A stretch of 64,000 bases of DNA, taken from IMG/VR virus record IMGVR_UViG_3300002835_000026. One strand, 5' to 3'. The notes below the pieces were generated by a model. That model worked only from the letters and a program-made list of their open reading frames with translations. It was not told the DNA's origin and made no database searches. The stretch is from a virus. A program made the position numbers and the translations under genes. Below, piece by piece: positions 28,375 through 52,805 of the stretch. Numbering within the stretch: the stretch's first letter is position 1; each line of letters begins with the position of its first letter.

Positions 28375-29433
28375 TTATTTAATAATTCCTGCTATTTTTT
28401 GCATTCTTTTGAATGTGTCATTAACTTCTACAATAGGTTTTCTTGCCGATGGCATGATACCTGTTGTTTTAGATGCTAAACTAGTTTTCAATGATTCATT
28501 AACATGTGATTTAGAAGTTTCTTTTAAACCTTCTGATAATGTTTCGAATACTAATTTAGTTTCTTTTACTGTTGATGCTTTATCAAATGCATTTAAAACC
28601 TTTACTTTTTGTGACTCGGTTAAGTTTTTAGCTTTGAAAATTTTGTTAGTGTAAAGTAATTTCGCATTTAACAAATTAACTTCATTGATGTCAGTTCTCA
28701 TAGTAGCAATAGTTGACATAGCTTCTTCTAACTCTTTTTTAAGTTTAGTCATTTCTTCTTTGTCTTTCTTGTCTTCTTTGTCACCTTTTTTCTTAGCTTC
28801 GTCTAATGCGATTTCAGCTAAAATTTCATCAATTGAAACTTCTTCTTCTTCACTTTCCATTTCTTCGCCTTCTTCACCTTCCATGCCTTCACCAGCTTCT
28901 AATTCGCCAGATTCAACCATGTCTTTAATTACGTCTTCAATGAATGATTTTAACTCTTCTTCAGTCATGTCTTCAATGTTGATTTCTTCTTCAGTTTCAA
29001 CTTCTTCTTCACCTTCTGCTTCGTTTAATTCTTCTTTTTTCATTTCGTCGTCTTCAGCATGCATGTTTTCGTCTTTCATGTCTGCTTCTAATTCAGCTAA
29101 TAATTCGTCAAGATTAAGTTCATCTAATTCTTCTTCAGCTACATTACCATGTGCTGTTGGACCTTTTGGGTTGTTGATTAGATCTTCTTCTTCTTTAACT
29201 TCTTTGTAGCCCATTAAGTTTTCTTCTTTTTTAGAATACATTTCTTCCATATCATCCATCTCTGCTTCTTCAACATCCATTTCTTCCATTTCTGCAAGTT
29301 TAGCTGATAGCATAGATTTTAATTGTGGAGTAAAGTGTTCTTCAAGTGCTGCTTTTGCGCTTGCTATTGCTGTTTCTTTAACAACTTTAGCGTCTTCGAT
29401 TGCTTCTTTAAGCAAATCTCTGTTTTTACTCAT
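28375..29433 (-). CDS. Prohead core scaffold protein (acidic); start more likely 29433 (MSKNRDLLKEAI) than 29463
   Basis: Very Glu-rich coiled coil immediately upstream of the MCP; EVNLLNAKLLYTNK; C-terminus FKRMQKIAGIIK. Confidence 0.85.
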   Translation of the reverse strand: MSKNRDLLKEAIEDAKVVKETAIASAKAALEEHFTPQLKSMLSAKLAEMEEMDVEEAEMDDMEEMYSKKEENLMGYKEVKEEEDLINNPKGPTAHGNVAEEELDELNLDELLAELEADMKDENMHAEDDEMKKEELNEAEGEEEVETEEEINIEDMTEEELKSFIEDVIKDMVESGELEAGEGMEGEEGEEMESEEEEVSIDEILAEIALDEAKKKGDKEDKKDKEEMTKLKKELEEAMSTIATMRTDINEVNLLNAKLLYTNKIFKAKNLTESQKVKVLNAFDKASTVKETKLVFETLSEGLKETSKSHVNESLKTSLASKTTGIMPSARKPIVEVNDTFKRMQKIAGIIK

Positions 29434-29457
29434 TTGTCCTAAAATTTTGTTTGGGAA

Positions 29458-29524
29458 ATACACTTATTTAAAGTGTAATAGAATTGTTATTTATAGATAC
29501 TGCAAATGCGATTGCGGGCAGTAT
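29458..29524 (-). promoter_or_regulatory. Structured 5' leader of the scaffold/MCP transcript (two hairpins)
   Basis: ATACTGC...GCAGTAT (~29497-29524) and TACACTT-aaat-AAGTGTA-like (~29459-29477) stems downstream of an ATATGTATA motif variant at ~29532-29540. Confidence 0.4.
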
Positions 29525-29567
29525 ATTCTAATATACATATGTCCAGATTATCTAAAACACACAGAAG

Positions 29568-29598
29568 TGTAAAGAGAAAGCTCTTCTTTTGGAAGAGC
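29568..29598 (-). terminator. Probable intrinsic terminator after the nuclease gene
   Basis: GCTCTTC/GAAGAGC stem followed by TTTCTCTTT on the minus strand. Confidence 0.65.
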
Positions 29599-29604
29599 CA
29601 TGTT

Positions 29605-30198
29605 TTATTTACAATTACACTTAAACGTGTTTAAGTCTTTTGATGTAGGGGCAATGTTAAGAAAATAATAACAATACTTAGTGTTACCTACTTTTAATTC
29701 TTTATAGAATCCTTTAGGTATTGCCGCGTTTGTAGGTACACGTTTAGGTACTTTATCGTAATCTAATCTAACATATACTGATACAGTAGTTGTTTTTGCT
29801 TGTTCACGTTCCCATATTTCTAATGCTTTCCAAGGACCACGATTAAGTGATTGTTGTTGCATTGCTGAATTAATATAGGTAAATGTTGAGTATAACATTT
29901 CTTTAGTACAGTTAAATGAAGCAGCAGGAGCAATATGTCCTTTGTCCCACTCATTATTAACATAATCTTCGTTATCAGATGTTTTAATGTTTTTGTCTGT
30001 GTAGAATTCCATACCTGCTCTAGAAGCGGTACCTGTAGGACATTTAACAGTATAAGTAACCCATTTAGGTTGTTCTAAAATTTCAGAATATACAATACGA
30101 AAGTTAGGAGTTTGATAGTTAACACTATCTCTTAATTTAGTTTGTCCAAAAACTACTGTTGATAGGCAAACTAATATTACTAGAAATAAATTTTTCAT
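29605..30198 (-). CDS. DNA/RNA non-specific endonuclease (NucA/Serratia-type) with N-terminal signal peptide; start likely 30198
   Basis: MKNLFLVILVCLSTVVFG signal; PKWVTY, DY...WDKGHIAPAA, TF...N..MQ..SLNRGPWKALE, IPKGFYK. Confidence 0.9.
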   Translation of the reverse strand: MKNLFLVILVCLSTVVFGQTKLRDSVNYQTPNFRIVYSEILEQPKWVTYTVKCPTGTASRAGMEFYTDKNIKTSDNEDYVNNEWDKGHIAPAASFNCTKEMLYSTFTYINSAMQQQSLNRGPWKALEIWEREQAKTTTVSVYVRLDYDKVPKRVPTNAAIPKGFYKELKVGNTKYCYYFLNIAPTSKDLNTFKCNCK

Positions 30199-30199
30199 G

Positions 30200-30805
30200 T
30201 TAGAATAACGGACATGATCCATTAGCACATAGAATATCAGTAATAATTGAATTAATTTTACCGTATTGATTTGTACCTGGAGTATATGATTCGTTTAAGT
30301 TGGTTGGTTGCATCCATGAACCAGGATTAGAAGGTGTTGAAACAAAATCCCAACATAGTAATTCAAAGTCATCTTGTACTTCCATTACATTACCTTTTTG
30401 TTCTAACGAACCCATTCCTCTTGATGATACACCTACTGTAATACCACTTTCAATTAATGCTTTTAAGATGTTACCAGATGGAGTAGGTAAAATTTCAATT
30501 AAACCCATTACATTATCTCCATTCCACCAGCATTTTTTAATATTATGTGAAACATTTTTTAAGTTAATAATTGAAGAATCTGGGTGGTCTAATTCACCTA
30601 ATGCTCTGTTTTCTCGAACTGATTCCATGTAGCGATCCATTTCACGTTCCCATAATTCTTTAGCGTAATATCTACCATTACCGTTTTTTACTTCGACAGT
30701 AGCTAACACACCTTCTACTAATATGTTACCTCCAGGATTAGTTCCTTCAGTTAACCTAACAGCTTTAGGAGAAAATAATTGTGTTTCAATTAATACTTGT
30801 CTCAT
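30200..30805 (-). CDS. Prohead core protease (T4 gp21-like)
   Basis: KNGNGRYY, ALGELDHP, NVSH, TPSGNIL, GVSSRGMGSL, WDFVSTPS. Confidence 0.95.
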   Translation of the reverse strand: MRQVLIETQLFSPKAVRLTEGTNPGGNILVEGVLATVEVKNGNGRYYAKELWEREMDRYMESVRENRALGELDHPDSSIINLKNVSHNIKKCWWNGDNVMGLIEILPTPSGNILKALIESGITVGVSSRGMGSLEQKGNVMEVQDDFELLCWDFVSTPSNPGSWMQPTNLNESYTPGTNQYGKINSIITDILCANGSCPLF

Positions 30806-30811
30806 ATTACG

Positions 30812-32149
30812 TTAATTTGTATTTCTATTACTTATAATTTTTTCAATTGCATTTTTTCTTCCTCCAAATCCCTTAACACCTTGACCACTTAATATATCTC
30901 TTAATTCATCATCTGTTATATTACGATCATTAATTTGCTTTTGGTATTTCATTAACAACATGTTTTCAGATCTATTATCTGCCTCTTTACCTAACTCTTC
31001 AGGTGATCGCTTTAATGGTGTTACATCTGGGTTTGAAGAAGGTCTTGATAATATATCTCGGTCATGAATACCTTCTTTAATAGTTTTAGCTTTAGGTAAA
31101 TCACCATATCCGCTTGACTTATATTTACCTTTAGGTGCAATTGTTAATTTTTCAGTTTTAAATCCTACTCCTTTAGTTCCAAACATAGCATTTTTAGCAT
31201 AATAGTTTATGTCTTTAACCATGTTTTTAAGTACAATTTGTTTTAACTCATCAACTGTTTTAGTTTTGTTTTTAGGATCTTTCATTTCAGCATAGTAGCC
31301 ATTTAAGAAAGATGTACCATAAACATTATCAATATTTTTCTTATCTTCAGTATTATATTGATCAGCTAAATCTTTTTTAACTTGTTTAGATGGTTTTTTA
31401 AACTCATCATAATCACCATATAGTTTTCTATTTGGAACACCAATGACTTCTGATAATGTTTCTTCTTTAACTGGTCTTAACAACATTGGTTTAGTTACAA
31501 ATAACTCTCTACCATCTTCTGTCTTGCCTTTAATTTGTTTAATTTTGCCATCTACTTTATCTACTAAAGTAATTTCTACTTTATCATCACCAATCATAGC
31601 TTTATCACCAACTTTAACTTTAGAGCCAAATGATAAATCACTATGTGAAGTACCTAATACATCACCTTCATTTGTATTTAAAAGAGGTTTTATATCTTGT
31701 GTAAATATTTCAGTTTCAGTGAATTTCTTTCCATCAGCCATTATAATCATATCAAGATCTTCTTTTTTAAGTTCTCCTGATTTAAGAGCATTAAATAAAT
31801 CAATAGCTCTAGTGATGTTTTTATCATTTAATAATTTAGCACCTCCATTACGCTTTATCATACCTACAGCCTGCCCAAAGGGACCATCAGAAGCTGAAGT
31901 CATATCTACTGCCTCATTACTTGTATTTTCTCTAAAAATTTCTAACCAAGATGATGATGGTTTGTGACTAATTACACCACCAATACCTTCACTTAAAATA
32001 CTTTTTGATTTAAGTACACTTATAGTTGTATTATAATCAGAATATTGATTAATATAATTTGGAAATAAAATTCTTGCTTGTTTTAAGAAATGATCTTTGT
32101 TTCCTTTTCCTTCTTTAATAAGGATGTATTGTTCTTGTAATGTTTTCAT
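30812..32149 (-). CDS. Hypothetical head-module protein (445 aa), candidate internal protein
   Basis: Lies between portal and protease; begins MKTLQEQY; contains multiple L/I-x-E sites. Confidence 0.65.
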   Translation of the reverse strand: MKTLQEQYILIKEGKGNKDHFLKQARILFPNYINQYSDYNTTISVLKSKSILSEGIGGVISHKPSSSWLEIFRENTSNEAVDMTSASDGPFGQAVGMIKRNGGAKLLNDKNITRAIDLFNALKSGELKKEDLDMIIMADGKKFTETEIFTQDIKPLLNTNEGDVLGTSHSDLSFGSKVKVGDKAMIGDDKVEITLVDKVDGKIKQIKGKTEDGRELFVTKPMLLRPVKEETLSEVIGVPNRKLYGDYDEFKKPSKQVKKDLADQYNTEDKKNIDNVYGTSFLNGYYAEMKDPKNKTKTVDELKQIVLKNMVKDINYYAKNAMFGTKGVGFKTEKLTIAPKGKYKSSGYGDLPKAKTIKEGIHDRDILSRPSSNPDVTPLKRSPEELGKEADNRSENMLLMKYQKQINDRNITDDELRDILSGQGVKGFGGRKNAIEKIISNRNTN

Positions 32150-32387: not shown

Positions 32388-32388
32388 A

Positions 32389-33225: not shown

Positions 33226-34072
33226 TTACCTTATGTAATTCTTCTAGTAATTCATAATAATGAAGTAAATTAGTCATATCATCATTACTAATTTTATCAT
33301 TTTTATCTAATGTAACTAAAATATTAGACACCTCATTAATTTTAATTTGAGTTGTCTTATCTTTAACTTTTTTATTTAATTTAGTTAAATTAGATTTAAT
33401 TTCTGTTACTTTAGTATTGTAAAAATCTTTTAATTTAGATGGATTATCAACACTGTTGATAAATTCTTTTAATACTGATTTTTGTCCTTCATTTAAATTA
33501 GCATACTTAGAATTAAATTTTTCTAATAACGCTCTATAAGTTAACATACGAATATCTTTATCGTATGACTTAAATTCTTCCATTAGTGTATCTTTAGCAA
33601 CTGTTGTAAGTGGTGCTGAAGTTAAATGTTCTAATAGAATTAATTTATTTGAGATTACTTGGTTAGCTTCTGGTTGATTAATACCATCATACATTTCTAA
33701 TAATGTATAAAACGCTGCTTGTGTTTTGTAGTTAGGAAGTTTGGTTTTAAAAAATTCATCAACGTCATAATTTGCTTTAATTTCTTTAATTAAATTATAT
33801 TTTTGACGACGTAATGCTGATTTGTTTAAATATTTAGCACTTTCTAATAAAGTACTGATAATAATATCGGCTTTGCCTTCACTTAATTTAATGTTGTTTA
33901 ACAACGTTTCATATAACTTATACTCTTTTCCTAACTCTGTTTTTACAAAGTGTTTTTTTAGAATAGTTGCTGCTTTTGAGTCTACGCCTGACAATGTATC
34001 AGACGTAATTTGTCTAACTAAAAGTTCAAATAAAATGCCAGTATTCTTGTATTTTGAATGTTTAACAATCAT
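33218..34072 (-). CDS. Helical protein following the portal (284 aa), probable prohead core component
   Basis: KHSKYKNTGILFELLVRQITSD N-terminus; position immediately after the portal. Confidence 0.65.
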   Translation of the reverse strand: MIVKHSKYKNTGILFELLVRQITSDTLSGVDSKAATILKKHFVKTELGKEYKLYETLLNNIKLSEGKADIIISTLLESAKYLNKSALRRQKYNLIKEIKANYDVDEFFKTKLPNYKTQAAFYTLLEMYDGINQPEANQVISNKLILLEHLTSAPLTTVAKDTLMEEFKSYDKDIRMLTYRALLEKFNSKYANLNEGQKSVLKEFINSVDNPSKLKDFYNTKVTEIKSNLTKLNKKVKDKTTQIKINEVSNILVTLDKNDKISNDDMTNLLHYYELLEELHKVNG

Positions 34073-34088
34073 TCCTAAAGTGTTTTAT

Positions 34089-34097
34089 TATAAATAT
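34089..34097 (-). promoter_or_regulatory. Putative late promoter motif ATATTTATA
   Basis: Upstream of the gene starting at 34072. Confidence 0.55.
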
Positions 34098-34107: not shown

Positions 34108-35985
34108 TTATTCTCTAATTTGGGATTCATCTAATAGCGAATCTCCTGGTTTTTCTTGACTAAGACATAATTTTTTGTCAACTTGTTCAAACAAACGTTT
34201 ATTTCTTGCGAAAGCTGACTTAGCATTTTCTAAAGCAAACGGTTTGGTTGTTGATTTACCATATCCTGGTTGGTCATCTGATTTCATATCTTTAACACCT
34301 AATCTATCACGACCTAACGCGCTATCTTGTGTGTTAATATTAGATACTTTTTCTTTTGGACGACCTAATTGTGTATCATTATTATATCCTGGTGGTAATT
34401 CACCTTCTGGTCTGCCGTTTTTACTATATAAACTGGCTAAATCATGTGGTGTACCATAAGATTTACCTGTTTCTACTGGATCATTACCTTCTTCTTTAAT
34501 TTGTGCGATTCTAAATTCACGTTTTGCATCTTCAATCATCATATCTCTATATTCATCATATGAATCTTCAGAGAATCTGAATACATTGTCATAAACCCAA
34601 TCAGTAGGCATTAATTTAGTTTCAATGATGTTTTTAGCTAAATCAACTTTTTCCTTCATTAACATAATACGTTCTTGATCATATATAATAGACGGTGTGG
34701 TTAACGATAACTCGAAGTTAGTTAATTCATCATTAGTATAACCTTGAACATATAAATGTACTAATGCGATTTTATATAATTCAGACAATGTAATACGTTG
34801 AATACGATCAATTGTACGAGCAAAACGAATATCTTCCGCTGCTAATGTTGCTTTACCTTGTAAATCTTTATCATAACCTAAAAATGCTTTAGGTACCTTT
34901 AATGCTGCAAATAATTTATCTCTTAAATATGCAACGTCTTGAATACCATCGTAATCTAAACCTTTAGTATTTTCAATACGTGTTGCTTGGTCATTACCTC
35001 TTACTGGAATATAAAAATCTTCTAGTAAGTTTTGCATGTTATATTTTACGTTATATTCACCTGTCTTTTGATCCATTAATGGAGTACGTTTCATTGAACT
35101 AATAGTTTTCTGCATAAATGCTTCAACTTCATTAGGCGGGATAGAACCAACATTAATAAAGAAAGTACGTTTTTCTGGTGAACGAACTACACGATGGATT
35201 AACATTGCATCTTCCATTAACGCGTATTGTTTATATAAACGACGAGCTGGTTCTAGATAAGATCTACCATATGGTAAATAATTAACATCTGTAATTAATC
35301 TAAAGTGAGCAACCTCATAGTTTTCAAAGAAAATACCTGGTTCGTTTTGACGGCCTAAATTAGGTGTATTGTAATAACCATCACCTGATAAAAATCCTTC
35401 AGGTTTAAATTGGAAACGAACAGACGCTGGTTTGTCTTTATCATAATTTTCTTGTCTTTCAATATGATACGCTGTGTATGGAATAACATTATATACACCA
35501 AATTTTTCAGCAATTTCTAATCTTAAGAAAAAATCACCATATTTACACATTTGACGAATCCAAGACCATAAATTAAATTCGATATTTAATACATCATAAA
35601 ATAAGTTATATAAAATTCTTTGAATGTTTTCATCTGATGAACGAATAGATAATACTTCACCCATATCATCTTTTAATGTAGACTCATCAGCTACAATATC
35701 AAGTGCAGAACCAACAATTGCATCCTGATCCATGATATCATAGTCTGAATATAATTGGGTACGTAAGTATTGATAATTTAAATTTAATTGAGCTCCATAA
35801 AGTGAAGATGCATTAGTTGAATAGATTCTATTATATCTATCCATTAATGAGTTAGTAGCGATATCACCTGTTTGTTGTATGGTGTTAACGTCCATTACTT
35901 TTAATTGATCACCACCCTGATTTCTCATCACTACATCAGTAGAGAACAGTCGTTGTAATCGTGAAAATAAGCCTTTGTCTGCCAT
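34108..35985 (-). CDS. Portal protein (T4 gp20-like)
   Basis: YGRSYLEPARR, LMEDAMLIHRVVRSPEKRTFFINVG, EDFYIPVRG, YLRDKLFAALKVPK, EDIRFARTIDRIQ. Confidence 0.95.
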   Translation of the reverse strand: MADKGLFSRLQRLFSTDVVMRNQGGDQLKVMDVNTIQQTGDIATNSLMDRYNRIYSTNASSLYGAQLNLNYQYLRTQLYSDYDIMDQDAIVGSALDIVADESTLKDDMGEVLSIRSSDENIQRILYNLFYDVLNIEFNLWSWIRQMCKYGDFFLRLEIAEKFGVYNVIPYTAYHIERQENYDKDKPASVRFQFKPEGFLSGDGYYNTPNLGRQNEPGIFFENYEVAHFRLITDVNYLPYGRSYLEPARRLYKQYALMEDAMLIHRVVRSPEKRTFFINVGSIPPNEVEAFMQKTISSMKRTPLMDQKTGEYNVKYNMQNLLEDFYIPVRGNDQATRIENTKGLDYDGIQDVAYLRDKLFAALKVPKAFLGYDKDLQGKATLAAEDIRFARTIDRIQRITLSELYKIALVHLYVQGYTNDELTNFELSLTTPSIIYDQERIMLMKEKVDLAKNIIETKLMPTDWVYDNVFRFSEDSYDEYRDMMIEDAKREFRIAQIKEEGNDPVETGKSYGTPHDLASLYSKNGRPEGELPPGYNNDTQLGRPKEKVSNINTQDSALGRDRLGVKDMKSDDQPGYGKSTTKPFALENAKSAFARNKRLFEQVDKKLCLSQEKPGDSLLDESQIRE

Positions 35986-36004
35986 TTTATTATATGTTAT
36001 TAAT

Positions 36005-36013
36005 TATAAATAT
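36005..36013 (-). promoter_or_regulatory. Putative late promoter motif ATATTTATA
   Basis: Upstream of the portal ATG at 35985. Confidence 0.55.
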
Positions 36014-37976: not shown

Positions 37977-38259
37977 TGTATTTAGTTTTATATAAATCGG
38001 CTTTATATTTTAAACCCGATAATTTTGTTTTATCTTCTGTTACTTGTTTTTTATAAACAGCAGTAACTGAATCTAATTGGGCAATTTTAATTTTAGTAGA
38101 GTCAATATTTGCCTGTAATGAATCTATTTTATTATTTAATGTTTCGTTTTCTTTAGCCAAACGGAAATTAGGATTAATGTTAAGAATATTTACAATTAAT
38201 AACACTAATCCTATGTATCCTAAAAATTTAAGAATTTCTTTATACAACATCAAATTCAA
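37903..38259 (-). CDS. N-terminal TM plus coiled-coil protein; inner-membrane spanin-like candidate
   Basis: FLGYIGLVLLIVNIL followed by a long heptad repeat. Confidence 0.5.
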   Translation of the reverse strand: MNLMLYKEILKFLGYIGLVLLIVNILNINPNFRLAKENETLNNKIDSLQANIDSTKIKIAQLDSVTAVYKKQVTEDKTKLSGLKYKADLYKTKYNEEHNRINNLSNDALVSEFTNAFN

Positions 38260-39286
38260 ATTTATCCTTTAATGCTTCTAATTCTTTCTTTTGTGCTGTT
38301 TTTTCTTTTAATTTAGCAACAATATTTGCTTTTTCTTCGCCTTCAGCTTTTTTATAGTCGTTAGCTAATGTCTTCATTTCTTTTTCTACTTGAATTAAAC
38401 CTTTTAATACTTTATCTAATTTAGAAGTACGTTTAGTTAATTTATCAGCAGCTTTAGATGCTTGTTTGTCAATATCTGTTTCGTCTGGCGCTGAGTCTTC
38501 GTCTCCTGCTTTATAGTAGTCATCAGCTTCTTCTTCGCCTGTGTTAATATCTTTTTCCACTGCTTTAACTGCTTTTTCTATTTTTTCTTTAGATGGTTTA
38601 ACAACCGCTGCTTTTGGAGCGGCTCCACCCATTGATACTACACCTTTATCTTTTAACATACCCATTAATTCTCTGAATTTAGGATTGTTAATACTAGCTG
38701 TATCATTTAAACCAAATTCTTTAGCTACATCAGCAACTGACATTTCACCTTTTTCTAAAAGATATTCTAATGCTTTTTTAACATTACCTTTAGCTTTTTC
38801 AATTAATGAAGCTAATTCATCTTTCATTTCTTTATTTAAAATGTAAGATACTTTAGCACGAGCCATTTCATTTAAATCATTTTCATTATTAGATAATGAC
38901 ATCATTAAATCTTTTAAAAGATATTTAAAATCTTTATCTTGTAACCATCCTCTTGTATGAGCATAATAATCATAAACATCTTTAACTGAGCTTAATTTTT
39001 TAATATCCTTAATAAATTCATCTGGATTTGGAGATACTTCTGATTCAAACTCATATACTGTTTGTTGTAATGGAGTTAAATCATTAACTTCTTCAGCTAC
39101 GGCTATGGATTGTCCTGATTTTTTAGCTTGATCAATTGCTGCTTTAACAGTAGCAGTTGATGTTTTTTCTGATTTAGCTATTGTGTTAATATCATCAGTT
39201 GTTGTTTGTGGACCTACCATAGTAGTTTCACTTAATGCACCTATGATTTCTTCACGTATAAAAGATTTAAATTCTTTGATTTTCAT
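38240..39286 (-). CDS. Hypothetical protein (348 aa) with leader helix and possible HTH segment
   Basis: MKIKEFKSFIREEIIGALSE leader; 'ALEYLLEKGEMSVADVAKEFGL' resembles a winged HTH. Confidence 0.65.
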   Translation of the reverse strand: MKIKEFKSFIREEIIGALSETTMVGPQTTTDDINTIAKSEKTSTATVKAAIDQAKKSGQSIAVAEEVNDLTPLQQTVYEFESEVSPNPDEFIKDIKKLSSVKDVYDYYAHTRGWLQDKDFKYLLKDLMMSLSNNENDLNEMARAKVSYILNKEMKDELASLIEKAKGNVKKALEYLLEKGEMSVADVAKEFGLNDTASINNPKFRELMGMLKDKGVVSMGGAAPKAAVVKPSKEKIEKAVKAVEKDINTGEEEADDYYKAGDEDSAPDETDIDKQASKAADKLTKRTSKLDKVLKGLIQVEKEMKTLANDYKKAEGEEKANIVAKLKEKTAQKKELEALKDKFEFDVV

Positions 39287-42551: not shown

Positions 42552-42556
42552 CTAAG

Positions 42557-42628
42557 GTGGCCCACCTTTTTTAGGGTGGGCCACAGCTCCATAATGTTTT
42601 ATAAAATCGACAGGCTATGAATCTGTCT
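42557..42628. other. GC-rich structured intergenic element (two hairpins)
   Basis: GTGGCCCACC/GGTGGGCCAC 10-bp stem (42557-42584) and GACAG/CTGTC stem (~42609-42627). Confidence 0.55.
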
Positions 42629-42640: not shown

Positions 42641-43246
42641 TTATTTAAAGAATGACATATTATTATTAACAGCATATAAAAAATCTTGAGAAAATTTATA
42701 AGCTTGTTTAATTCTTTTCCCCATATATTCTTTATCACCCATAGGTTTTCCTTGGTGTACTGAATTGATAAAAGTAATTAACATATTTTTGTCTACTTCT
42801 TCTTCTTTACTTGTTGTATTGATTTTATTTAAATAAGATATAGCTATATCAGGTGTTGTACTTTTTATTGCTTTTACCATAGCATCATATGCTTGTGTAT
42901 TTGACATTTTATTTATATCAGCTGTGTTTCGTTTTGCATATGAAACCGGCATTTCAGTTTTTACAACTTGCTGGATTGATTGTTTTTGGTCTTGAGAAAA
43001 ACCTGGAGATGCTAACAATGATGATAATATAGCAGCAGTCATTAAGCCTTTTTTAGCATATGATTTAATTTTTTCTAATACATCATCAAATACTCCTTCA
43101 TTTAATGTATTAATTATATCATCAGCTATTTTTTGCTCTTCTGGTGATAAAGTAGTTTCTTGAATATCTTCTCTATATTTACTTTCAGTAATAATCCCAG
43201 CAAGTTTTTGCATACGGATAAATTGCTCGTTTAATGGTTGCTTCAT
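42641..43246 (-). CDS. Hypothetical protein with N-terminal RMQKLAGI motif
   Basis: MKQPLNEQFIRMQKLAGIITES. Confidence 0.75.
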   Translation of the reverse strand: MKQPLNEQFIRMQKLAGIITESKYREDIQETTLSPEEQKIADDIINTLNEGVFDDVLEKIKSYAKKGLMTAAILSSLLASPGFSQDQKQSIQQVVKTEMPVSYAKRNTADINKMSNTQAYDAMVKAIKSTTPDIAISYLNKINTTSKEEEVDKNMLITFINSVHQGKPMGDKEYMGKRIKQAYKFSQDFLYAVNNNMSFFK

Positions 43247-43248: not shown

Positions 43249-43488
43249 TTATTTAATTTTATTAAGTAATTCTTTATGATACATGTTAACAGCAGTTTCT
43301 AAATTTTTAAGATCAGCATCATCAGCTGTGTTATCTCTTTCAAATTCACGCAATTTGTTTAAATACTGCTTAATAACATTTTTTTGTCCTATGTTTATAG
43401 GACTATCATTTCCGGACATTTCCTCATTTATTTTAATTCCCGCAATTTTTTGCATTTTTATAAATTGCTCATTTAATGGCTCTTTCAT
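43249..43488 (-). CDS. Small hypothetical protein with N-terminal KMQKIAGI motif
   Basis: MKEPLNEQFIKMQKIAGIKINEE. Confidence 0.75.
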   Translation of the reverse strand: MKEPLNEQFIKMQKIAGIKINEEMSGNDSPINIGQKNVIKQYLNKLREFERDNTADDADLKNLETAVNMYHKELLNKIK

Positions 43489-43512: not shown

Positions 43513-44625
43513 TTATATTCCTGCTAGTTTTTGCATTCTAATGAATTCTAAAGATAAAGATTCATTTATTGCTGATGGTGATTTTATATTTTTTACAATA
43601 GAACTTATAGACTCCCAACTTTCTTTAATTAATTCAATTATAGCATATGCTAATAATATATAATGACCAAATTCCCATATCTTTATAAGATCATCTGCGT
43701 AAGGAATATAAGCAGAATATTCTTTTATTTTTTCTTCTACCCAACTCCAAGAAGAGTTAAAAACTCCTGAAATTTCCATAACAGCTGATATAAGTTCTGG
43801 AATAACATGAAATTCCATAGCTTTAGGGCCTCCTATTTTTTCAATAAATTTAGATATTAGTGTTAATATTTTAGAACTTGCCCAAGAACCAGTTATACTT
43901 ACAATACCCATTACTGGATTTAATGCTACTTTTATTATGTTTCCTAACCATGTTTTCCATTTACTATTTTCTTCTGCTTCTAATAAAACATTAGGATTAT
44001 TTAAATGTTCAGTAGTTTGTTTATTAAATATATTTTCTTGAATATTTTTTCCTGCTTCTTCTGCTTTTGTAATAACTGGTTCAACTACTTTGTCGCCAAT
44101 AGCATCAATCATAGTACTTGGGTCTTCTATTTTACCCTTAAAAAAACTATCTATTTTAAGTATGTGATTTATTTCAGCTATTAAATCATCTCTATCTGGG
44201 CCATTTAGTGCTTTTTTAAAGGCTTCTGTTATTTTATTTTTATTTTTTTCTATTAATCCTTTAATTGCTGTTTTTCCTTTTGAAATAAGATCAGTAAAAG
44301 CTTTTTTAATTTGAGCCCAAACTTTTACAACATAATTTTTAATTCCACCAAAAGTAGATTTAACTTTTTCCCATCCTGATCTAAACCAATCTGCTATACC
44401 TTCGTTTACTTGAGATTCAAATAATACTATATTTTTTCTATGAAAACTAGAATGTGATTCAAGATATAAAGATAATGCTTGTTTTTCACCACTAGTAAAA
44501 TAATCATTATTTGGTATAGATTTAATAAATTCTTCTTGAACTATTTTTATAGTCTTAGGTATTAAAGAAAATGAAATTTCCTTTTTTACTTCTTTAATTA
44601 ATTGTTTTAATTCTGATTGTTTCAC
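43513..44625 (-). CDS. Helical, partly hydrophobic hypothetical protein with leader helix and C-terminal RMQKLAGI motif
   Basis: MKQSELKQLIKE...INESLSLEFIRMQKLAGI*. Confidence 0.75.
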   Translation of the reverse strand: MKQSELKQLIKEVKKEISFSLIPKTIKIVQEEFIKSIPNNDYFTSGEKQALSLYLESHSSFHRKNIVLFESQVNEGIADWFRSGWEKVKSTFGGIKNYVVKVWAQIKKAFTDLISKGKTAIKGLIEKNKNKITEAFKKALNGPDRDDLIAEINHILKIDSFFKGKIEDPSTMIDAIGDKVVEPVITKAEEAGKNIQENIFNKQTTEHLNNPNVLLEAEENSKWKTWLGNIIKVALNPVMGIVSITGSWASSKILTLISKFIEKIGGPKAMEFHVIPELISAVMEISGVFNSSWSWVEEKIKEYSAYIPYADDLIKIWEFGHYILLAYAIIELIKESWESISSIVKNIKSPSAINESLSLEFIRMQKLAGI

Positions 44626-44886: not shown

Positions 44887-45417
44887 TTATATATTTTTAT
44901 TTATTAGTATATATAATTTATATTCATCATCTCCCCAACTGCCACCTAAAGATTCAACTTTAGTCACATATGGTAATTGTTTCATCATTTTTTCAGCTAA
45001 ACTTTGATATATTCTATCTCGTTTACTATTTCTACTTGTTTCTTCATCTGCCTCATTAGCAGGATGGCATTCTAATGTAAATTCACCATAGCCTTTAAAG
45101 TCAATTTCAATAAATTTTTTTAGAATATCAACAACAGTATTTAATACTGCTATACCGTCTCCTGATTCAGTTTGAGCCCATGGATTTCCTTTATTTAAAC
45201 CAAAACTAACATCTAATATTAAATCATCATTAGTTATATCTTCAGGTTTAGCTTTAGAATTCACTAAAGATATCCAGTAATCTTCATATGAATTATTTAT
45301 AGAAACAAAAATATTGTTTCCTTTTTTATTTATAAAATTATAACGTACACCATCACTTGTTTTTTTAGGACCTGTGAATGAGTAACTTTCTGTTAATAAA
45401 TCAATGAGTTTGATCAT
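44887..45417 (-). CDS. Hypothetical protein (176 aa)
   Basis: Leader MIKLIDLLTES; in operon. Confidence 0.7.
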   Translation of the reverse strand: MIKLIDLLTESYSFTGPKKTSDGVRYNFINKKGNNIFVSINNSYEDYWISLVNSKAKPEDITNDDLILDVSFGLNKGNPWAQTESGDGIAVLNTVVDILKKFIEIDFKGYGEFTLECHPANEADEETSRNSKRDRIYQSLAEKMMKQLPYVTKVESLGGSWGDDEYKLYILINKNI

Positions 45418-46038: not shown

Positions 46039-46356
46039 TTATTTTTCTCTAATTAACAATTCGCCTAATACTTCTAAACGACCAACTTCACGTTGGAATT
46101 CATTTTGAGTCATATCTAATGATATTTTTTTATAGGTTTCATCGAATTCTTTTTTAGCTGCTTCTTTATCAAATTTACCTTTTATAGCTTTTTTATAATA
46201 AGATGGTTTCACATTAAAGTGAGTATATGTTAATAAAGCATCGCCGCCTTTTTCTTTAGCATTAGCTATAATTTTTTCAGCACCTGCTAAACGATTTTTA
46301 GCAAATGTTTCAAAACTTTCTTTAGCTTCAGTTAATAATTGAATAAGATTAATCAT
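46039..46356 (-). CDS. Hypothetical protein (105 aa)
   Basis: Leader MINLIQLLTEA. Confidence 0.7.
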   Translation of the reverse strand: MINLIQLLTEAKESFETFAKNRLAGAEKIIANAKEKGGDALLTYTHFNVKPSYYKKAIKGKFDKEAAKKEFDETYKKISLDMTQNEFQREVGRLEVLGELLIREK

Positions 46357-46796
46357 TTTTTTATTTTTTTAAATGGAGCATATCCTGAACCATATGGAGC
46401 TGATTTGCCAGATTGAGGATCTGGAGTTTCTGATATAGTCCAAGTTTTAGCATCATGTGCTTTTTCTTTCAATTTAAATGTAACAACACCACGAATTGAT
46501 TTAATATCTTTTTCTACTTTAGTTACAATATTAGTATTGTCATTTAATCCTTTAGGGAATGGTGATGGATCAATTTTAATATCTAAATAAGCATATTCAT
46601 ATTGTGATGATGGATTACCTGACTGATATTCTCTGTTATTAACAATAGTTACACCTAATACAGCTCTAACATCAGATAAAATGTATTTCATTTTAGCAAC
46701 TTTAGGGTTGATAACAATAACACCACCAATGGCTAATACCTTTTTTGATGAAGCATATTCTTCTTTAATTGCTTTTTTAATTTCTGATAGTTTCAT
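46353..46796 (-). CDS. Hypothetical protein; start likely at MKLSEIKKAIKEE (46796)
   Basis: Leader helix; ferredoxin-like 'ILSDVRAVLGVTIV...IKSIRGV' pattern. Confidence 0.65.
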   Translation of the reverse strand: MKLSEIKKAIKEEYASSKKVLAIGGVIVINPKVAKMKYILSDVRAVLGVTIVNNREYQSGNPSSQYEYAYLDIKIDPSPFPKGLNDNTNIVTKVEKDIKSIRGVVTFKLKEKAHDAKTWTISETPDPQSGKSAPYGSGYAPFKKIKK

Positions 46797-46807: not shown

Positions 46808-47455
46808 TTACCAAAAACCGGTAAAAGTAGTTTTAAATCCTAATAAGTTTGCGTAACGAGGTAATCTACATGACCAGTAACGTGCTGTTGTTTTATCTTT
46901 AGCTTGTGGACAATTCATTCTATCTGAAAATGCTTTACGTGCTTTAGGATTGTTTAGTTTTGCTCTTAAAGCTCCACCAGCCATACCAAATGATATTTTT
47001 TTAACTTTATCACCGTCTTTAACATAAACATAGAATTTTTTAGATCCACCACGTTTTGGTTTACCTAATGCTACTTCTTTACCTTGGTATTTAGCTTCAG
47101 TTATTATTTCCATTAATGGTAAATCTAAAGGAACAAATTCGCCTTCATATTTTGCCCACCTGCCAATATCAGTACGTTCAAATATTTTTTTATCTGTACC
47201 TTGTAATTCAATAATACCTTTAGACCATAACATTCTCGCTTCAGTCAATAATTTTTGATGAGCGAAACTGCCTGGGCGATATATATTCTCGGTAAGCTGT
47301 ATTTTACTGTCTATATGGTAACGCATCGCCTCAGATATCGCCATATTGTACTGCTTAGACTCTACGAGTAAAGGCGGTGTATCGCAGTGTTTGCATGAAT
47401 CGGTTACTTTGTAATTTTGCAAAGTTTCTGAGATAAGTTGTTTTAATTTATTCAT
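46808..47455 (-). CDS. Two-domain hypothetical protein with basic Cys-containing C-terminal domain
   Basis: ITE|AKYQGKEV..GKPKRGGSKKFYVYV..KISFG..ARKAFSDRMNC..RYWSC. Confidence 0.75.
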   Translation of the reverse strand: MNKLKQLISETLQNYKVTDSCKHCDTPPLLVESKQYNMAISEAMRYHIDSKIQLTENIYRPGSFAHQKLLTEARMLWSKGIIELQGTDKKIFERTDIGRWAKYEGEFVPLDLPLMEIITEAKYQGKEVALGKPKRGGSKKFYVYVKDGDKVKKISFGMAGGALRAKLNNPKARKAFSDRMNCPQAKDKTTARYWSCRLPRYANLLGFKTTFTGFW

Positions 47456-47458
47456 GAT

Positions 47459-47467
47459 TATAAATAT
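47459..47467 (-). promoter_or_regulatory. Putative late promoter motif ATATTTATA
   Basis: Immediately upstream of the ATG at 47455. Confidence 0.45.
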
Positions 47468-48492
47468 TAAATTGCTTTAGCAGTTGAAAATTGCTTTTTA
47501 GGATAAAATCCAAATCTTGCGTTTTTAATGTCTTGTTGACTCATATTATTTCTAAAAGTGACAGCCATATGTGGTATATATTCTCCAGTTAATTGTTGTG
47601 GATATATAAAATAAGCAGGACTAGTTATTTCAAAATACTCACCTTTATCAATTAATGTTATATTTCCAAAGCATATTAATTCTACTTTATCAATTCCAAA
47701 ATCTTCACCTAAACCGTAAGATGCTTTTAATTTTAAATCATCAGATTTAATATCTCTTTTATAACTGTCTTTATTTTTTAGTTCTCCACCTGATGTTTGC
47801 TTAACAGCATCTATAAAGCTTTTAACCTCATCATTATTACTTAATTTACTCATTCCTGATAATTGTTGAGATTGAATATCTTTATGTTGGATATATAGAT
47901 TTTCATCACCCTTAAATATAAAATCAGCTTGTTTATTACCTGGTATTTTTTCTACTGTAGTAATATTTTTGTATACTTTTTCTCCTACTTTTATATTAAT
48001 ACTTCCACCTTTTTCTTCAATAGCTTTATTTAAATTACTTAATTGATAATCTTCAATATCAGCACCAATAGCTTCCATACCTAATACTAAAATTATATCT
48101 TTTCCTTCAATAGGAAATTGGAATGCAAAATTTCTGCTACTAGGATTTTGGTTATTAGGATTACCTAATTTTGTTGGAGGAAGAATTTTAATATCTTTAG
48201 GATCTATATCAAATATATTAGATATAATATCTATAAATTCATTATTAGTAATATTCCCTATATTTTTTATACGTTTAGGTCTACTATGAGGACCTAATTT
48301 TCCTTTAGCTTCATCTGATGATAAAATAGTTCTTATAACTTGGGGTGTTGTTATTTTATCTTCTTTTAAACTAATACCTAAATTATTTAGTAATGATTCC
48401 ATTAATAAAATATCCTGTTCATTTTTCATGTCAGGATATCCTTTAGGAAATTTATAAGAATATTGTTTTAAAAACTTATCTAATGGATCCAT
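47467..48492 (-). CDS. Hypothetical protein with possible PD-(D/E)xK-like nuclease domain
   Basis: E....L...I...KQADFIF......IQHK..QQLSG resembles a restriction-endonuclease-fold catalytic motif. Confidence 0.55.
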   Translation of the reverse strand: MDPLDKFLKQYSYKFPKGYPDMKNEQDILLMESLLNNLGISLKEDKITTPQVIRTILSSDEAKGKLGPHSRPKRIKNIGNITNNEFIDIISNIFDIDPKDIKILPPTKLGNPNNQNPSSRNFAFQFPIEGKDIILVLGMEAIGADIEDYQLSNLNKAIEEKGGSINIKVGEKVYKNITTVEKIPGNKQADFIFKGDENLYIQHKDIQSQQLSGMSKLSNNDEVKSFIDAVKQTSGGELKNKDSYKRDIKSDDLKLKASYGLGEDFGIDKVELICFGNITLIDKGEYFEITSPAYFIYPQQLTGEYIPHMAVTFRNNMSQQDIKNARFGFYPKKQFSTAKAI

Positions 48493-48782
48493 TATTTTAC
48501 TTCAATTTGCTTCAAATTTGAAAATATTTGAGTTAATAAATTGTCGTCATTTGTTTTAATCATAGCAATCATAGTATCAGCCAATATTTTATTAGCCGCT
48601 ACATTCAAAGGTTTATTACTTTTTACTAAATTAATAGTAGTAGTAAATTTAGAAGGATCAAAACCTTCAACACCTAATTTTTTAAATAAATCTGTTTTGA
48701 TTTGACCTTGAAGTTTTGGTTCTTCAGTAGTGACTTCTAAAATTTGTTCTCTTATTAATTTTTTAAGTTCTGATTTTTTCAT
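48492..48782 (-). CDS. Hypothetical protein (96 aa)
   Basis: Leader MKKSELKKLIREQILE. Confidence 0.7.
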   Translation of the reverse strand: MKKSELKKLIREQILEVTTEEPKLQGQIKTDLFKKLGVEGFDPSKFTTTINLVKSNKPLNVAANKILADTMIAMIKTNDDNLLTQIFSNLKQIEVK

Positions 48783-48793: not shown

Positions 48794-49282
48794 TTAAATT
48801 GTTAAATCAGCAGCTGGAGTTGATTCTTCAGCTGGACCTGGTTCTGTAGCTGCTTCATCACCTGAATCTTTAAATGATGAATTCGCATCTTTTGAAGCTC
48901 CATATGATAATAATCTAGCTATAGATTCTGTTGCCCGCCCTTCGTCTTTTATATCATTTAGCCAATATTTTTTACCTTCTGATTTACAAATCCATGTAAC
49001 ATCATCATATAGTAAGTAAAAGAATTGATTGTTAGCTAATAATATTTTAAATGTTGTTGGTTTAGGTGCTATCCATTGTATTTCACTAACAAAATCTTTA
49101 TATTGAGTTGTTAGTAATTGAATGATAGAATCACGTAATGTAGGGAATTTAGCTAAAATAGGAAACTTATCCAAATCTAAAGAAATATCTGTTTTAGGAA
49201 CATCTAAATCTATTTTAGATTGGGCTTTGTAAACTTGTTTTACAATAGCACGTATTCTATTTTTAAAGTCTTCTTTTACCAT
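48794..49282 (-). CDS. Hypothetical protein (162 aa)
   Basis: In operon; WIAPKPTTFKI.L.N motif. Confidence 0.7.
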   Translation of the reverse strand: MVKEDFKNRIRAIVKQVYKAQSKIDLDVPKTDISLDLDKFPILAKFPTLRDSIIQLLTTQYKDFVSEIQWIAPKPTTFKILLANNQFFYLLYDDVTWICKSEGKKYWLNDIKDEGRATESIARLLSYGASKDANSSFKDSGDEAATEPGPAEESTPAADLTI

Positions 49283-50682
49283 TAGTTTTTATTTTCTTTA
49301 TTCCAGTCTGATAAACTCATCATGCCTACTTCAGTATCATAATCATCATAATAATTATTTTTTACTCGTTGACCTATTTTTTGAGCTTCAGCTTTTGAAT
49401 TTAAAGTATGTCTTAATTTTTTACCGGTTTTATCTACATTAATCCATACTACCCACTTTTCACCTTCTGCTGCTTCTTCTTTAACCATTGGTTTTTTAAG
49501 TTTAGCCATTATTTTTTCAGATAATGTTGAGTTTGTTAAAGATTTAACTTCATCCATGTTCTGTGCATTTACAGCGTTAAAAACTTCTTGACCATATTTT
49601 GACACTACTTCTTTCTCAGACTTTCCAGCATCAATCATTTTTTTAGCCGCAGCAATATCCTGTTTAAATTGTGTTGGTTTAGATGATTTAACTCTATATT
49701 TTTCTTGTGCAGGAGTAACTTCATTCATTGGTTCATCCATTGCTGGAATAATATCTTCGTAATCCTGCATTGACAATGTTTCTTTACTTTTATTGATTTC
49801 AATAGCTTTTTCAGCCACATCATGTAAATCCATATCCGCTTTAGCGTCTTCACGAGCAAATTCTAACATACGAATAAATAAAGGTACATCCATAGTAACT
49901 GTATCTACTGCATCTTTAGCTTCTGCTTCTTCTTCGTTAACTTCTTCTTTAACTAAACCACCTTTAAGGATAGTCATAATAGATGAGTAAGCATCATCAA
50001 TACTATAATCATAGTATTTAGCTACACCTTTAACAAATTGTTCTACTTTTTTTCTTAATTCAGGATTAATACTACCTCCAGTAACAAACATTTGAGCTTT
50101 TTCTTCTTGAATCATAGCATCTAAAGCTGGTTGTTTATCTTCAAATTCTAAATAATGTTTAGCTTTATCCATATAATCAGCAGCTAGATGGATTTTTTCT
50201 TGCCACCAATCAGGGAAATCAACTTCTTGATCCATTTGATCATATTTATCTAGCATTTTATATAAACTAGCGGCATATTTAGCTATACGATAAACAGATG
50301 CTTTTAACATATCTGGTTCATCATCTTGATGGCCTAAATCAATATCTTCTTTTGTAGCTTTTTTAATGATTGATTTTTGCAATTCATCAGGTAATGATTT
50401 TTGACCACCTTTTAAAGCAGGATCAGTATCAAACTCTTTTGAAAATTTTTCATCTACAGGACTCATAAGAGTCTTTTTAATCATTTCACGTACTTTATCT
50501 TTATTCATGTTTTCTGCTGTTTTTTTAGCTATATTAGTAGCACGTCCATACATCACTTTTTCAGCATCTTTACCATAGCGTTTAACTAATGATGATTTTG
50601 CGGTTTTAAGTTGCTTAATAACTTCCTCACGTTTTTTTAATTCATTAGGAGTTAATGTTTTTTCAGTGATACTTTGTTTCAT
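49282..50682 (-). CDS. Mosaic hypothetical protein (466 aa)
   Basis: Short segments (VMYGRAT; GHQDDEPDM..FPDWWQEKI; TMDVPLFIRMLEFARED) separated by x-x-E sites. Confidence 0.75.
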   Translation of the reverse strand: MKQSITEKTLTPNELKKREEVIKQLKTAKSSLVKRYGKDAEKVMYGRATNIAKKTAENMNKDKVREMIKKTLMSPVDEKFSKEFDTDPALKGGQKSLPDELQKSIIKKATKEDIDLGHQDDEPDMLKASVYRIAKYAASLYKMLDKYDQMDQEVDFPDWWQEKIHLAADYMDKAKHYLEFEDKQPALDAMIQEEKAQMFVTGGSINPELRKKVEQFVKGVAKYYDYSIDDAYSSIMTILKGGLVKEEVNEEEAEAKDAVDTVTMDVPLFIRMLEFAREDAKADMDLHDVAEKAIEINKSKETLSMQDYEDIIPAMDEPMNEVTPAQEKYRVKSSKPTQFKQDIAAAKKMIDAGKSEKEVVSKYGQEVFNAVNAQNMDEVKSLTNSTLSEKIMAKLKKPMVKEEAAEGEKWVVWINVDKTGKKLRHTLNSKAEAQKIGQRVKNNYYDDYDTEVGMMSLSDWNKENKN

Positions 50683-52805
50683 TATCTTAAAATTCTTTTT
50701 AACATTGGAAACATATTTTCATTAATTTGATTTAATTTACCTTTAGCTTTTTTAGCTTCAGCCATATCAGGATAACTATCATCATAAACATCCATGCTGT
50801 CATCATAATTATCATCATTATCATCACCTGGATTATCTCCAGCATCATATTGATTTAAGAAGTCTTCCAATTTCATTCCTGGATTTTTCTGTATTGCTGT
50901 AAACATATCATTTATTATGTCTTCATTGTCCATATTTGATAAAATATCATATATAGCATCAGCACTATCATCATTTATAGCTTCATTAATTGGAGCTGTA
51001 TCTAAGATATGAGCTTTAGTAAAATAAGTAATTGTATTAGCAATTTGAGTAATTAATTTTTCATCACCTAATGCTTTTGCTTCAGCATATGCTGCTTGTA
51101 AGTTAGATTGAATACCTGATACTTCAGTTGTTTTACCAGCCATCATATCTGATTCAGGAGCATCAACTACTTCAGTATCGTCTACTGTTATGTCTTCAAC
51201 TTCTTTATCTTTTTTAGCTTCACTAAGACTGTCATTAGCTAACTTACCCATGTCCACTAAATTTTCTAATTCTTCACGTTCATCATTATTAAGATCTGTG
51301 CCATCTTTAAATTTAGCAACAGAAATATAAACGTCAGAATAATCATTATAAGATCCACCTTCTACTTCAATTGAATTAACATCAACTTCTTTTCCGTTTA
51401 ACATTACTTTGTTTGATTCTGCTTCTTTTAAGGTAGTACCATCAGAAATTCCTTTAATACTTGAATGTAACATTGCTAAGAAATATTTCATTTCTATTAT
51501 TCTATCTTCCATCTCTCTATCTGTGAATTGACCAAACATGACAAGATTTTTAACTATATCTAAATTCCTAAAAGCAGTTTCTATAGCAGTAACAGTTTTT
51601 CTTTCAACATCTTTAGGCTTAGTAAAGTCCCAATTATCTCCAATAGTAGATATAGCTTCATCTAAAGGATTTTGCAACATATCTTCTAATTTTTCTGCTT
51701 CTTCTTCTGATAAACCAGGATAAGAGTTCATTAATTCTTCAGCATCATATTCACGCATCTCATCTATAAAAAGATCACCTTTATTTTTAAAATATTTAAA
51801 TAAAAACTCAGCATCATAGTTGTTGTCTTCTAATTCTACTTCTTCTGCTTCAGCTAATGGATCATACATGTTATTTAAAGCACCTGGTTCATCAATATCT
51901 TCTGTAGAATCTTCATTTAATTCAGCTAAAATCATTTCTTTGATTTTTGATTTTAGTTTAGATTTAGTCATCTTTTCTTTTTCGATTTCTTCACCTTTTT
52001 TAACTCCAGCACCATATATATTTTCTTCACCTTTTTTACCTAAACGTTTAGCTGATTTAGCTCTATCATAATCAGTATCACCTTCGCTCATTTGTGTATT
52101 ATTTAATTTAGATAAATCGTTTGGATCAATAACAACTATTAAATTATCAATTTCTTGACCATATCCTATTGGACTATCACCTACTTCATTTTTTACTCCA
52201 ATAGAAGTTAAATAATTACTCATTTCATCTGCTAATTTATCTACTGTATTATTTAAAAATGATTTTTCTTTATCTTTTAAATAATCTCTATCACCAAAAT
52301 CCATAGAATTTTCTATTTCTTTAAAATTATCACTGTTAGTAACAACTAAATAAAGTTCATTATCTACTTTATAGTATTCAACATTTTTAAATTTACCAAA
52401 ACTTACTTTTGAATCTTTGTAAGCACCTTCACCTTCATTCATATCATCTAAGAAAAAGTCTTGACCTGGGAATAAAGTAGCTAAATCAGTTAATTTTAAA
52501 TTAACTTGATAAATAGATGGAGCCATTTCTTGGTATACTTCTGAATTATATTTGTCTGCTATAGTTTGGATCATAATGTCATCATTTGATGCAATCATGA
52601 CTTTGTTTTTTGCTGGGTATACCCAGATGTCTAGTGTTTCATCAGCATTTTTATTTGGAGGTACCATGTGGTAGATATTATCATCTCCCATGATTCTTTT
52701 CCATGATGAAAAATTTAACATGTTAGTATTAGATCCTTGATTTTCTTTAATAATACCCGCAAGTTTTTGCATGCGAGCTAATTGTTCATTTAATGTTGGT
52801 TTCAT
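50682..52805 (-). CDS. Acidic mosaic protein (707 aa) with N-terminal RMQKLAGI motif
   Basis: MKPTLNEQLARMQKLAGIIKEN; many [LIM]-x-E sites. Confidence 0.8.
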   Translation of the reverse strand: MKPTLNEQLARMQKLAGIIKENQGSNTNMLNFSSWKRIMGDDNIYHMVPPNKNADETLDIWVYPAKNKVMIASNDDIMIQTIADKYNSEVYQEMAPSIYQVNLKLTDLATLFPGQDFFLDDMNEGEGAYKDSKVSFGKFKNVEYYKVDNELYLVVTNSDNFKEIENSMDFGDRDYLKDKEKSFLNNTVDKLADEMSNYLTSIGVKNEVGDSPIGYGQEIDNLIVVIDPNDLSKLNNTQMSEGDTDYDRAKSAKRLGKKGEENIYGAGVKKGEEIEKEKMTKSKLKSKIKEMILAELNEDSTEDIDEPGALNNMYDPLAEAEEVELEDNNYDAEFLFKYFKNKGDLFIDEMREYDAEELMNSYPGLSEEEAEKLEDMLQNPLDEAISTIGDNWDFTKPKDVERKTVTAIETAFRNLDIVKNLVMFGQFTDREMEDRIIEMKYFLAMLHSSIKGISDGTTLKEAESNKVMLNGKEVDVNSIEVEGGSYNDYSDVYISVAKFKDGTDLNNDEREELENLVDMGKLANDSLSEAKKDKEVEDITVDDTEVVDAPESDMMAGKTTEVSGIQSNLQAAYAEAKALGDEKLITQIANTITYFTKAHILDTAPINEAINDDSADAIYDILSNMDNEDIINDMFTAIQKNPGMKLEDFLNQYDAGDNPGDDNDDNYDDSMDVYDDSYPDMAEAKKAKGKLNQINENMFPMLKRILR

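Follow-up and report, generated by a model that had tools for sequence, protein, structure and literature searches.

A conserved scaffold tail recurs at the ends of unrelated proteins in a T4-like phage and is a candidate prohead address

We focus here on a short peptide, [RK]MQK[LI]AGI, encoded in a stretch of viral DNA of 64,000 nucleotides (nt) from IMG/VR record IMGVR_UViG_3300002835_000026; this whole stretch is referred to below as the window. The peptide lies at the extreme C-terminus of the head scaffold protein and recurs at one end of four other proteins, labelled cargo 1 to 4 below, whose bodies are unrelated to one another. We propose that it is a removable prohead address, comparable in kind to the capsid targeting sequence (CTS) of phage T4, which imitates the docking tail of the scaffold and is clipped off at maturation, and we give this reading a probability of roughly 0.7. 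The source phage is uncultured and T4-like, and its nearest cultured relative infects Flavobacterium: its major capsid protein (MCP) is 55% identical to that of Flavobacterium phage immuto, 48% to that of Microcystis phage Mel-JY01 and 36% to that of Rhodothermus phage RM378. The window contains a T4-type head module, with a gp23-family MCP, a gp20-family portal, a large terminase and a Peptidase_S77 prohead protease, and all genes of the region are carried on the minus strand. Tag counts for this phage are those within the 64-kb window. The principal features are as follows, with protein lengths in amino acids (aa).

26670..28346, minus: MCP, T4 gp23 family (Pfam Gp23, 7e-74)
28375..29433, minus: head scaffold protein in the gp22 position, acidic, 352 aa, directly upstream of the MCP
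28378..28428, minus: scaffold C-terminal tag with the cut-site Glu included (peptide 28378-28413), preceded by ...IVE; E, then VNDTFKRMQKIAGIIK, then stop
30200..30805, minus: prohead protease, Peptidase_S77, T4 gp21 family (Pfam, 2.6e-31)
34108..35985, minus: portal protein, T4 gp20 family (Pfam Portal_T4, 9e-65)
42641..43246, minus: cargo 1, 201 aa; N-terminal tag at 43184-43246, MKQPLNE then QFIRMQKLAGIITE
43249..43488, minus: cargo 2, 79 aa; N-terminal tag at 43423-43488
43513..44625, minus: cargo 3, 370 aa, all-alpha; C-terminal tag at 43516-43572, with AINE, SLSLE, FIRMQKLAGI and stop
50682..52805, minus: cargo 4, 707 aa, acidic; N-terminal tag at 52743-52805

Five terminal copies in the window

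A six-frame regular-expression scan of the window finds exactly five matches to [RK]MQK[LI]AGI, all of them at protein ends: the C-terminus of the scaffold, the N-termini of cargo 1, 2 and 4 (42641-43246, 43249-43488 and 50682-52805) and the C-terminus of cargo 3 (43513-44625). A 12-residue hidden Markov model (HMM) built from metagenomic copies scores these five sites at 19-24 bits, with the next best open reading frame (ORF) of the window below 0 bits. Each of the three N-terminal methionines has a stop codon only 1-3 codons ahead of it, which excludes longer frames, so those tags cannot be internal. The N-terminally tagged ORFs begin with M-K-x-x-L-N-E, followed by the tag and then by ITE, INE or IKE. 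Every copy in the window is bracketed by [LIV]xE sites: the N-terminal ones have LNE ahead of them and one of ITE, INE and IKE behind, and the C-terminal ones are preceded by IVE or INE/SLE; the consensus reads M-x-K-Q-x-L-N-E-E-F-x-R-M-Q-K-L-A-G-I-x-x-E. The original prediction, made from the letters of the window, had placed the peptide at five sites, always terminal and next to [LIV]xE, and it is borne out on each point, since all five coordinates match and all five copies are both terminal and adjacent to such a site.

Stripped of their tags, the bodies of the four cargo proteins show no BLAST similarity to one another at E<1e-3. A codon comparison of two tag copies reveals different codons at 7 of the 10 shared residues; these synonymous differences indicate that the tags are not recent DNA copies and that selection acts on the peptide rather than on the DNA.

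The scaffold and its tail

The scaffold ORF starts at an ATG at 29433, in a frame open from a GTG at 29463, and gives no family hit. Its N-terminus, ...DLLKEAIEDA, resembles the MLKEQLIAEA of T4 gp22, and this likeness together with the position of the gene supports its earlier assignment as the scaffold. A scan of IMG/VR with a back-translated DNA pattern yielded at least 119 loci, with 120 occurrences among the matches listed, of which 94 are C-terminal, about 22 N-terminal and 3 internal, the last one being unclassified, with no Met called. Among the same matches, the 94 C-terminal tags lie at most 4 residues from the stop codon in ORFs of 307-473 aa, and a gp23-like MCP lies directly downstream of the tagged ORF in 92 of these loci. 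An [LIVM]xE site occurs within 14 residues upstream of the scaffold tag in 89 of the 94; in 67 of these, the end of the site falls exactly 6 residues ahead of the motif.

An alignment of 40 scaffold tails, whose cognate MCPs are 39-73% identical to that of the window, shows M-Q-K-x-A-G-I to be invariant. Variant scaffold ends are RWQKLAGIIK in immuto, RMKKLAGIVK in Mel-JY01, RMQKLADIS in the 484-kb phage LR756508 and RIKRLAGL in RM378. The overall pattern, with the spacing of F, M, L/A and I followed by G-I-I-K, would fit in sequence an amphipathic stretch with a short hook. A PDB sequence search with a profile of the tail returned chance hits only (APC16, E = 0.5). GenBank lists gp067 of immuto (NC_055915; 33946-35187) under the name 'DNA polymerase phi-like protein'; by its position and both termini it is a gp22-like scaffold, and the misannotation presumably arises from its acidic low-complexity region.

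Protease and cut sites

The S77 protease of the window shares 35% identity with T4 gp21. In the alignment, T4 H85 and S140, both of which are mutated to Ala in the inactive crystal form (PDB 5JBL), correspond to H74 and S127 of the window protease, so that the catalytic His and Ser are conserved. The MCP, in turn, has a conserved N-terminal propeptide of about 59 aa that is rich in [LI]xE sites and has invariant positions at L7/E9, L33-L34-E35, L49-E50 and E59. Compared with shuffled sequences, [LI]xE sites number 905 observed to 589 expected in scaffolds and 132 to 39 in the first 60 aa of the MCPs, with z-scores inflated by the related sequences, whereas the cargo bodies show no enrichment (204 observed, 219 expected). 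This contrast between scaffold and cargo fits a scaffold that is degraded and cargo bodies that survive.

Tagged proteins in metagenomes and relatives

BLAST sorts the 31 tagged non-scaffold bodies among the IMG/VR matches listed into 26 clusters. An exhaustive search of 1.84 billion cluster representatives with a 32-residue profile of the N-terminal form identified 1,224 protein clusters at E<=1e-3, 94 of them at E<=1e-10. In the best 150 of the 1,224, the tag starts within the first 16 residues in 146, and in 138 of these 146 an [LIVM]xE site ends exactly 3 residues after A-G-I. From the same best 150 come 127 bodies of at least 40 aa, which form 81 unrelated BLAST groups; a Pfam search with 76 tagged bodies gave only six isolated hits, including a RecA/KaiC-like ATPase and a PBECR4 nuclease. 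Most bodies in this set are small, with a median of about 115 aa, and acidic, with a median net charge of -0.07 per residue. Three proteins (P0004, P0008 and P0091) have the tag at or beside both ends, and in P0002 a second copy lies internally, well away from the termini.

The family of cargo 3 is informative on the placement of the tag. Its C-terminal tag and the upstream site are kept down to 42% identity. One homologue (P0166) is without the C-terminal tag; in another (P0169, 32% identical over 87% of the query), the tag at the N-terminus is intact and that at the C-terminus is a decayed relic. Read from these termini, P0169 is a natural relocation of the tag from the C- to the N-terminus, which argues that the tag functions independently of the end on which it sits. 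A homologue of cargo 2 in an IMG/VR locus (L060) retains the tag. In the family of the 707-aa cargo 4, most matches that seem untagged are 5'-truncated gene calls, so the untagged members are uninformative on tag loss.

The original prediction had described a portable, cleavable tag that a motif HMM would find at terminal positions on heterogeneous proteins, and such positions are found in the window and in the metagenomic relatives alike. Portability holds up, with the tag on unrelated bodies, at either end or both, and moved within one family. Cleavability is well supported by inference from the S77 protease, with its catalytic His and Ser, and from the fixed spacing of [LIVM]xE after the N-terminal tags. 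Binding to the MCP and later ejection of the cargo are putative elements of that prediction, which as a whole is partly supported.

Whole-record scans identified two tagged cargo genes in immuto, and the scaffold copy only in Mel-JY01 and LR756508. A loose DNA pattern for diverged tags gave few and ambiguous hits in Mel-JY01, RM378 and LR756508, with no clear terminal cargo tags. As far as scans of limited sensitivity can tell, the tail seems to be ancestral on the scaffold and universal there across the clade, and its use on cargo looks derived and sporadic; the four cargo genes of the window are at the high end of this small sample of relatives.

The four cargo proteins

Cargo 1, 2 and 4 belong to no known family in Pfam or PHROGs, and these two databases gave nothing convincing on the function of the cargo. 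The ESM Atlas contained no usable match to cargo 1. An AlphaFold2 (AF2) model of cargo 3, with a mean predicted local distance difference test (pLDDT) score of 62, had no Foldseek match in the PDB at E<=0.001. Cargo 3 carries, in addition to its C-terminal tag, a separate N-terminal LIKE leader (44590-44625).

Two further observations concern these proteins. Uncharged hydrophobic stretches occur in cargo 1 (L-M-T-A-A-I-L-S-S-L-L-A) and in cargo 3 (H-Y-I-L-L-A-Y-A-I-I-E-L-I), those of cargo 3 being ordinary helices of an all-alpha protein in the AF2 model. In the family of cargo 4, an INE site is followed by a conserved peptide at the C-terminus (50685-50732, minus), which ends N-M-F-P-M-L-K-R-I-L-R before the stop and, in variants, R-I-I-K. 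This peptide, with its basic end of the I-I-K type, is possibly a second C-terminal propeptide of a different kind.

Comparison with known systems

The closest parallel is the CTS of T4, the 10-residue leader of the internal proteins IPII and IPIII (MKTYQEFIAE), which brings foreign proteins into the core and is cleaved off by gp21 (Mullaney & Black 1996; PMC9026906, PMC9958956, PMC3012670); both leaders were confirmed in the T4 record. As in T4, a short terminal peptide, here a putative propeptide, ending in an [LI]xE site for an S77 protease is found on unrelated proteins in a phage with a gp20/gp21/gp22/gp23 head module, and the inferred role, loading of non-essential proteins into the core, is the same. 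The T4 CTS, on the other hand, is N-terminal, whereas the tag occurs at the C-terminus as well. The tag is also identical to the conserved tail of its own scaffold, and the 1,224 clusters that carry it contrast with the handful of internal proteins in T4.

A second parallel is provided by the scaffold of phage 80alpha, whose last 16 residues form an 11-residue amphipathic helix and a 5-residue hook (RIIK) on the coat protein N-arm; CpmB of SaPI1 copies this helix and hook and competes for the coat site (PMC5644958). Here too, the extreme C-terminus of a scaffold, with a putative amphipathic stretch and hook of the I-I-K type, is copied by unrelated proteins, although the likeness to the 80alpha element is one of layout and not homology. 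CpmB, furthermore, is a single mimic and the size-redirecting scaffold of a satellite rather than cargo, and for the tag MCP binding is only putative. A third parallel is T4 Alt, which has gp21-cleaved propeptides at both its N- and C-termini (PMC5694885), in the same way that putatively removable peptides stand at both ends of cargo 3, P0004, P0008 and P0091. Unlike the tag, the Alt propeptides have no known resemblance to the scaffold.

In engineered P22 virus-like particles, cargo is fused to the C-terminal coat-binding fragment of the scaffold, and in encapsulins it carries cargo-loading peptides. In both, as proposed here, a short terminal peptide directs heterologous proteins inside an HK97-fold shell. 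The P22 system is man-made and lacks release by a protease, and the tag would be its natural phage counterpart. Encapsulins have no scaffold, protease or DNA, whereas the shell here is a phage gp23-type MCP with portal, terminase, scaffold and protease, so that the comparison is an analogy only.

Proposed function and alternatives

We suggest that the gp22-like scaffold of this clade docks through its conserved C-terminal tail, ...F-x-[RK]-M-Q-K-[LI]-A-G-I-I-(K), and that the four other proteins, by virtue of a terminal copy of this tail, would co-assemble into the scaffold-filled prohead much as the T4 internal proteins do through their CTS. Once activated, the gp21-like S77 protease would cut at the bracketing [LIV]xE sites, thereby freeing the cargo bodies and degrading the scaffold. 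We infer prohead targeting and cleavage from the motif, its terminal position, the flanking sites, the protease, the diversity of the bodies, the relocation and the selection on the peptide.

Several observations weigh against this proposal. The tag is unrelated in sequence to the T4 CTS and, at 21 aa, about twice as long; with its occurrence at both ends, these differences set it apart as a variant of that system. T4 gp22 has another ending and lacks this tail. The cargo is mostly acidic, the opposite charge pattern to the basic, DNA-associated internal proteins of T4, and is thus a poorer fit to cargo packed with DNA; such bodies may point to DNA-mimic, anti-defence or assembly-only roles. 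Four of five near-complete relatives of 159-187 kb have the motif on the scaffold only, which makes its use on cargo sporadic. Experimental or structural support for binding, packaging or cleavage was found for no member, and a literature search found no virion proteomics of immuto or Mel-JY01, the immuto papers being on other topics as far as their titles and abstracts tell. The same literature contained neither the motif string nor a paper describing scaffold-tail mimicry in T4-like phages.

What the tail binds is a separate question. By analogy with the scaffolds of 80alpha and P22, the receptor could be the inner face or N-arm of the MCP, for which the odds appear slightly short of even. 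A complex prediction for the MCP with the C-terminal 60 aa of the scaffold scored 0.00 and counts neither for nor against binding. In its fullest form, which we regard as tentative and somewhat less probable than MCP docking as such, the proposal would have the scaffold tail and its copies share one site on the MCP inner surface or propeptide, such that any protein with the peptide of 14-17 residues at either end would be packaged into the head, trimmed and delivered along with the DNA; an abundant aquatic T4-like clade would thereby have a natural, position-independent system for carrying hundreds of unrelated, possibly anti-defence, effectors. Alternatively, the tag may load the prohead through the scaffold core, by binding another part of the gp22-like protein or tail to tail, as is thought for the T4 CTS. 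Reviews of T4 ascribe affinity for the core to the CTS propeptides (PMC9026906, PMC9958956, PMC3012670), although a 2023 review of the T4 head states that the mechanism of localisation to the scaffolding core 'remains mysterious'. As a putative short amphipathic helix, the tag could also self-associate, and residues 359-367 of cargo 3 are helical in the AF2 model, at low confidence (pLDDT about 40-50). In the solved case of 80alpha, on the other hand, the extreme C-terminus of the scaffold contacts the coat protein, and a tail that stays invariant across MCPs of such differing identity suits either receptor. We consider docking on the core unlikely, though a serious competitor to docking on the MCP.

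The tagged proteins might also be auxiliary parts of the core or scaffold, like T4 gp67 and gp68, that act in assembly only and are then degraded or expelled rather than delivered. Their acidity, which they share with the scaffold, would suit such a role, as would the 11 and 13 internal [LI]xE sites of cargo 3 and cargo 4 and the length, all-alpha nature and weak tape-measure-like PHROG hits of cargo 3. The cargo bodies, however, lack the site enrichment that marks the scaffolds, 81 unrelated groups that include nuclease-like and ATPase-like members are hard to explain as assembly factors, and most relatives manage without tagged cargo, so that we judge this role rather improbable. Still less probable is that the peptide serves mainly as a protease-docking or inhibitory propeptide, recruiting the S77 protease or keeping the protein inactive, with no part in head addressing. 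Cut sites do always bracket the peptide, and 'controlling activity' was raised by the T4 authors as a possible role of the Alt propeptides; but the scaffold, which needs no activation, has this very peptide as its invariant extreme C-terminus, and tagging at both ends and swapping of ends suit an address better than an inhibitor. Chance similarity, or a functionless hitch-hiking recombination module, is effectively refuted by the clean separation of HMM scores for five strictly terminal copies, by conservation over more than 1,200 clusters and by the synonymous divergence between copies.

If the address in this clade is the scaffold's own invariant tail, it leads to a testable hypothesis, namely that cargo competes with scaffold for one docking site, and immuto and Mel-JY01 are cultured systems in which to test it. 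The tag further marks 1,224 clusters (at 50% identity) of unannotated proteins as candidates for delivery by the virion. Were the proposal true, it would offer phage engineering a short, self-removing packaging tag that works at either end, and were docking on the MCP true, the receptor logic of the T4 CTS would be identified as well.

Expression and other leaders

A promoter-like 11-mer, ATATTTATAAT, precedes cargo 4 and recurs in the window.

52823..52833, minus: ATATTTATAAT, 17 nt upstream of cargo 4
945-955, 2182-2192, 25707-25717, 34087-34097, 36003-36013 and 47457-47467, minus: other exact copies of ATATTTATAAT

These seven exact copies compare with 0.96 expected, and 0 of 100 shuffles reach seven. 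Every copy is on the coding strand and precedes a start codon by 1-26 nt, and the genes downstream are virion or leader-bearing genes: the portal (copy 36003-36013), cargo 4 and the genes starting at 34072, 25698, 2170, 918 and 47455, one of which is tail-fibre-like. The late promoter of T4, TATAAATA, shows no enrichment upstream of genes in the window. ATATTTATAAT is a candidate late-promoter element of the clade. The genes for cargo 1-3 come last in a tightly packed co-directional run (intergenic distances of -4 to 24 nt) beginning at the copy at 47457, and the shared upstream element suggests, as a motif argument, that the tagged genes are co-expressed with virion genes. A perfect GC-rich inverted repeat (GTGGCCCACC ... 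GGTGGGCCAC) lies at about 42555-42585, within the 126 nt that directly follow the last tagged gene (between 42641 and 42514), and resembles a terminator at the end of the run of leader-bearing genes.

The window also encodes N-terminal leaders of at least two other classes, 7-14 residues long and ending in [LI]xE.

55485-55880, 44887-45417, 46039-46356, 59283-60245, 46808-47455 and 52837-53109, minus: class A leaders (MKKLIDLLRE, MIKLIDLLTE)
48492-48782, 43513-44625, 46353-46796, 38240-39286, 30812-32149 and 49282-50682, minus: class B leaders (for example MKKSELKKLIRE)

Class A leaders are similar to the way in which the scaffold (MSKNRDLLKE) and the MCP (MSTIQSLLE) begin, and none of the proteins with class A or class B leaders belongs to a known family. 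With these classes present, the RMQKLAGI tag is one of several candidate addresses in the phage.

Between the genes for the prohead protease and the scaffold, inside the head module, lies an Endonuclease_NS gene (DNA/RNA non-specific endonuclease, Pfam 3e-23; 29605-30228, minus), whose product has a hydrophobic, signal-peptide-like N-terminus. Downstream of the head and neck genes, a single ORF of 3,522 aa occupies 12060-22628 (minus); many long ORFs overlap it on the opposite strand, which suggests repetitive or low-complexity sequence.

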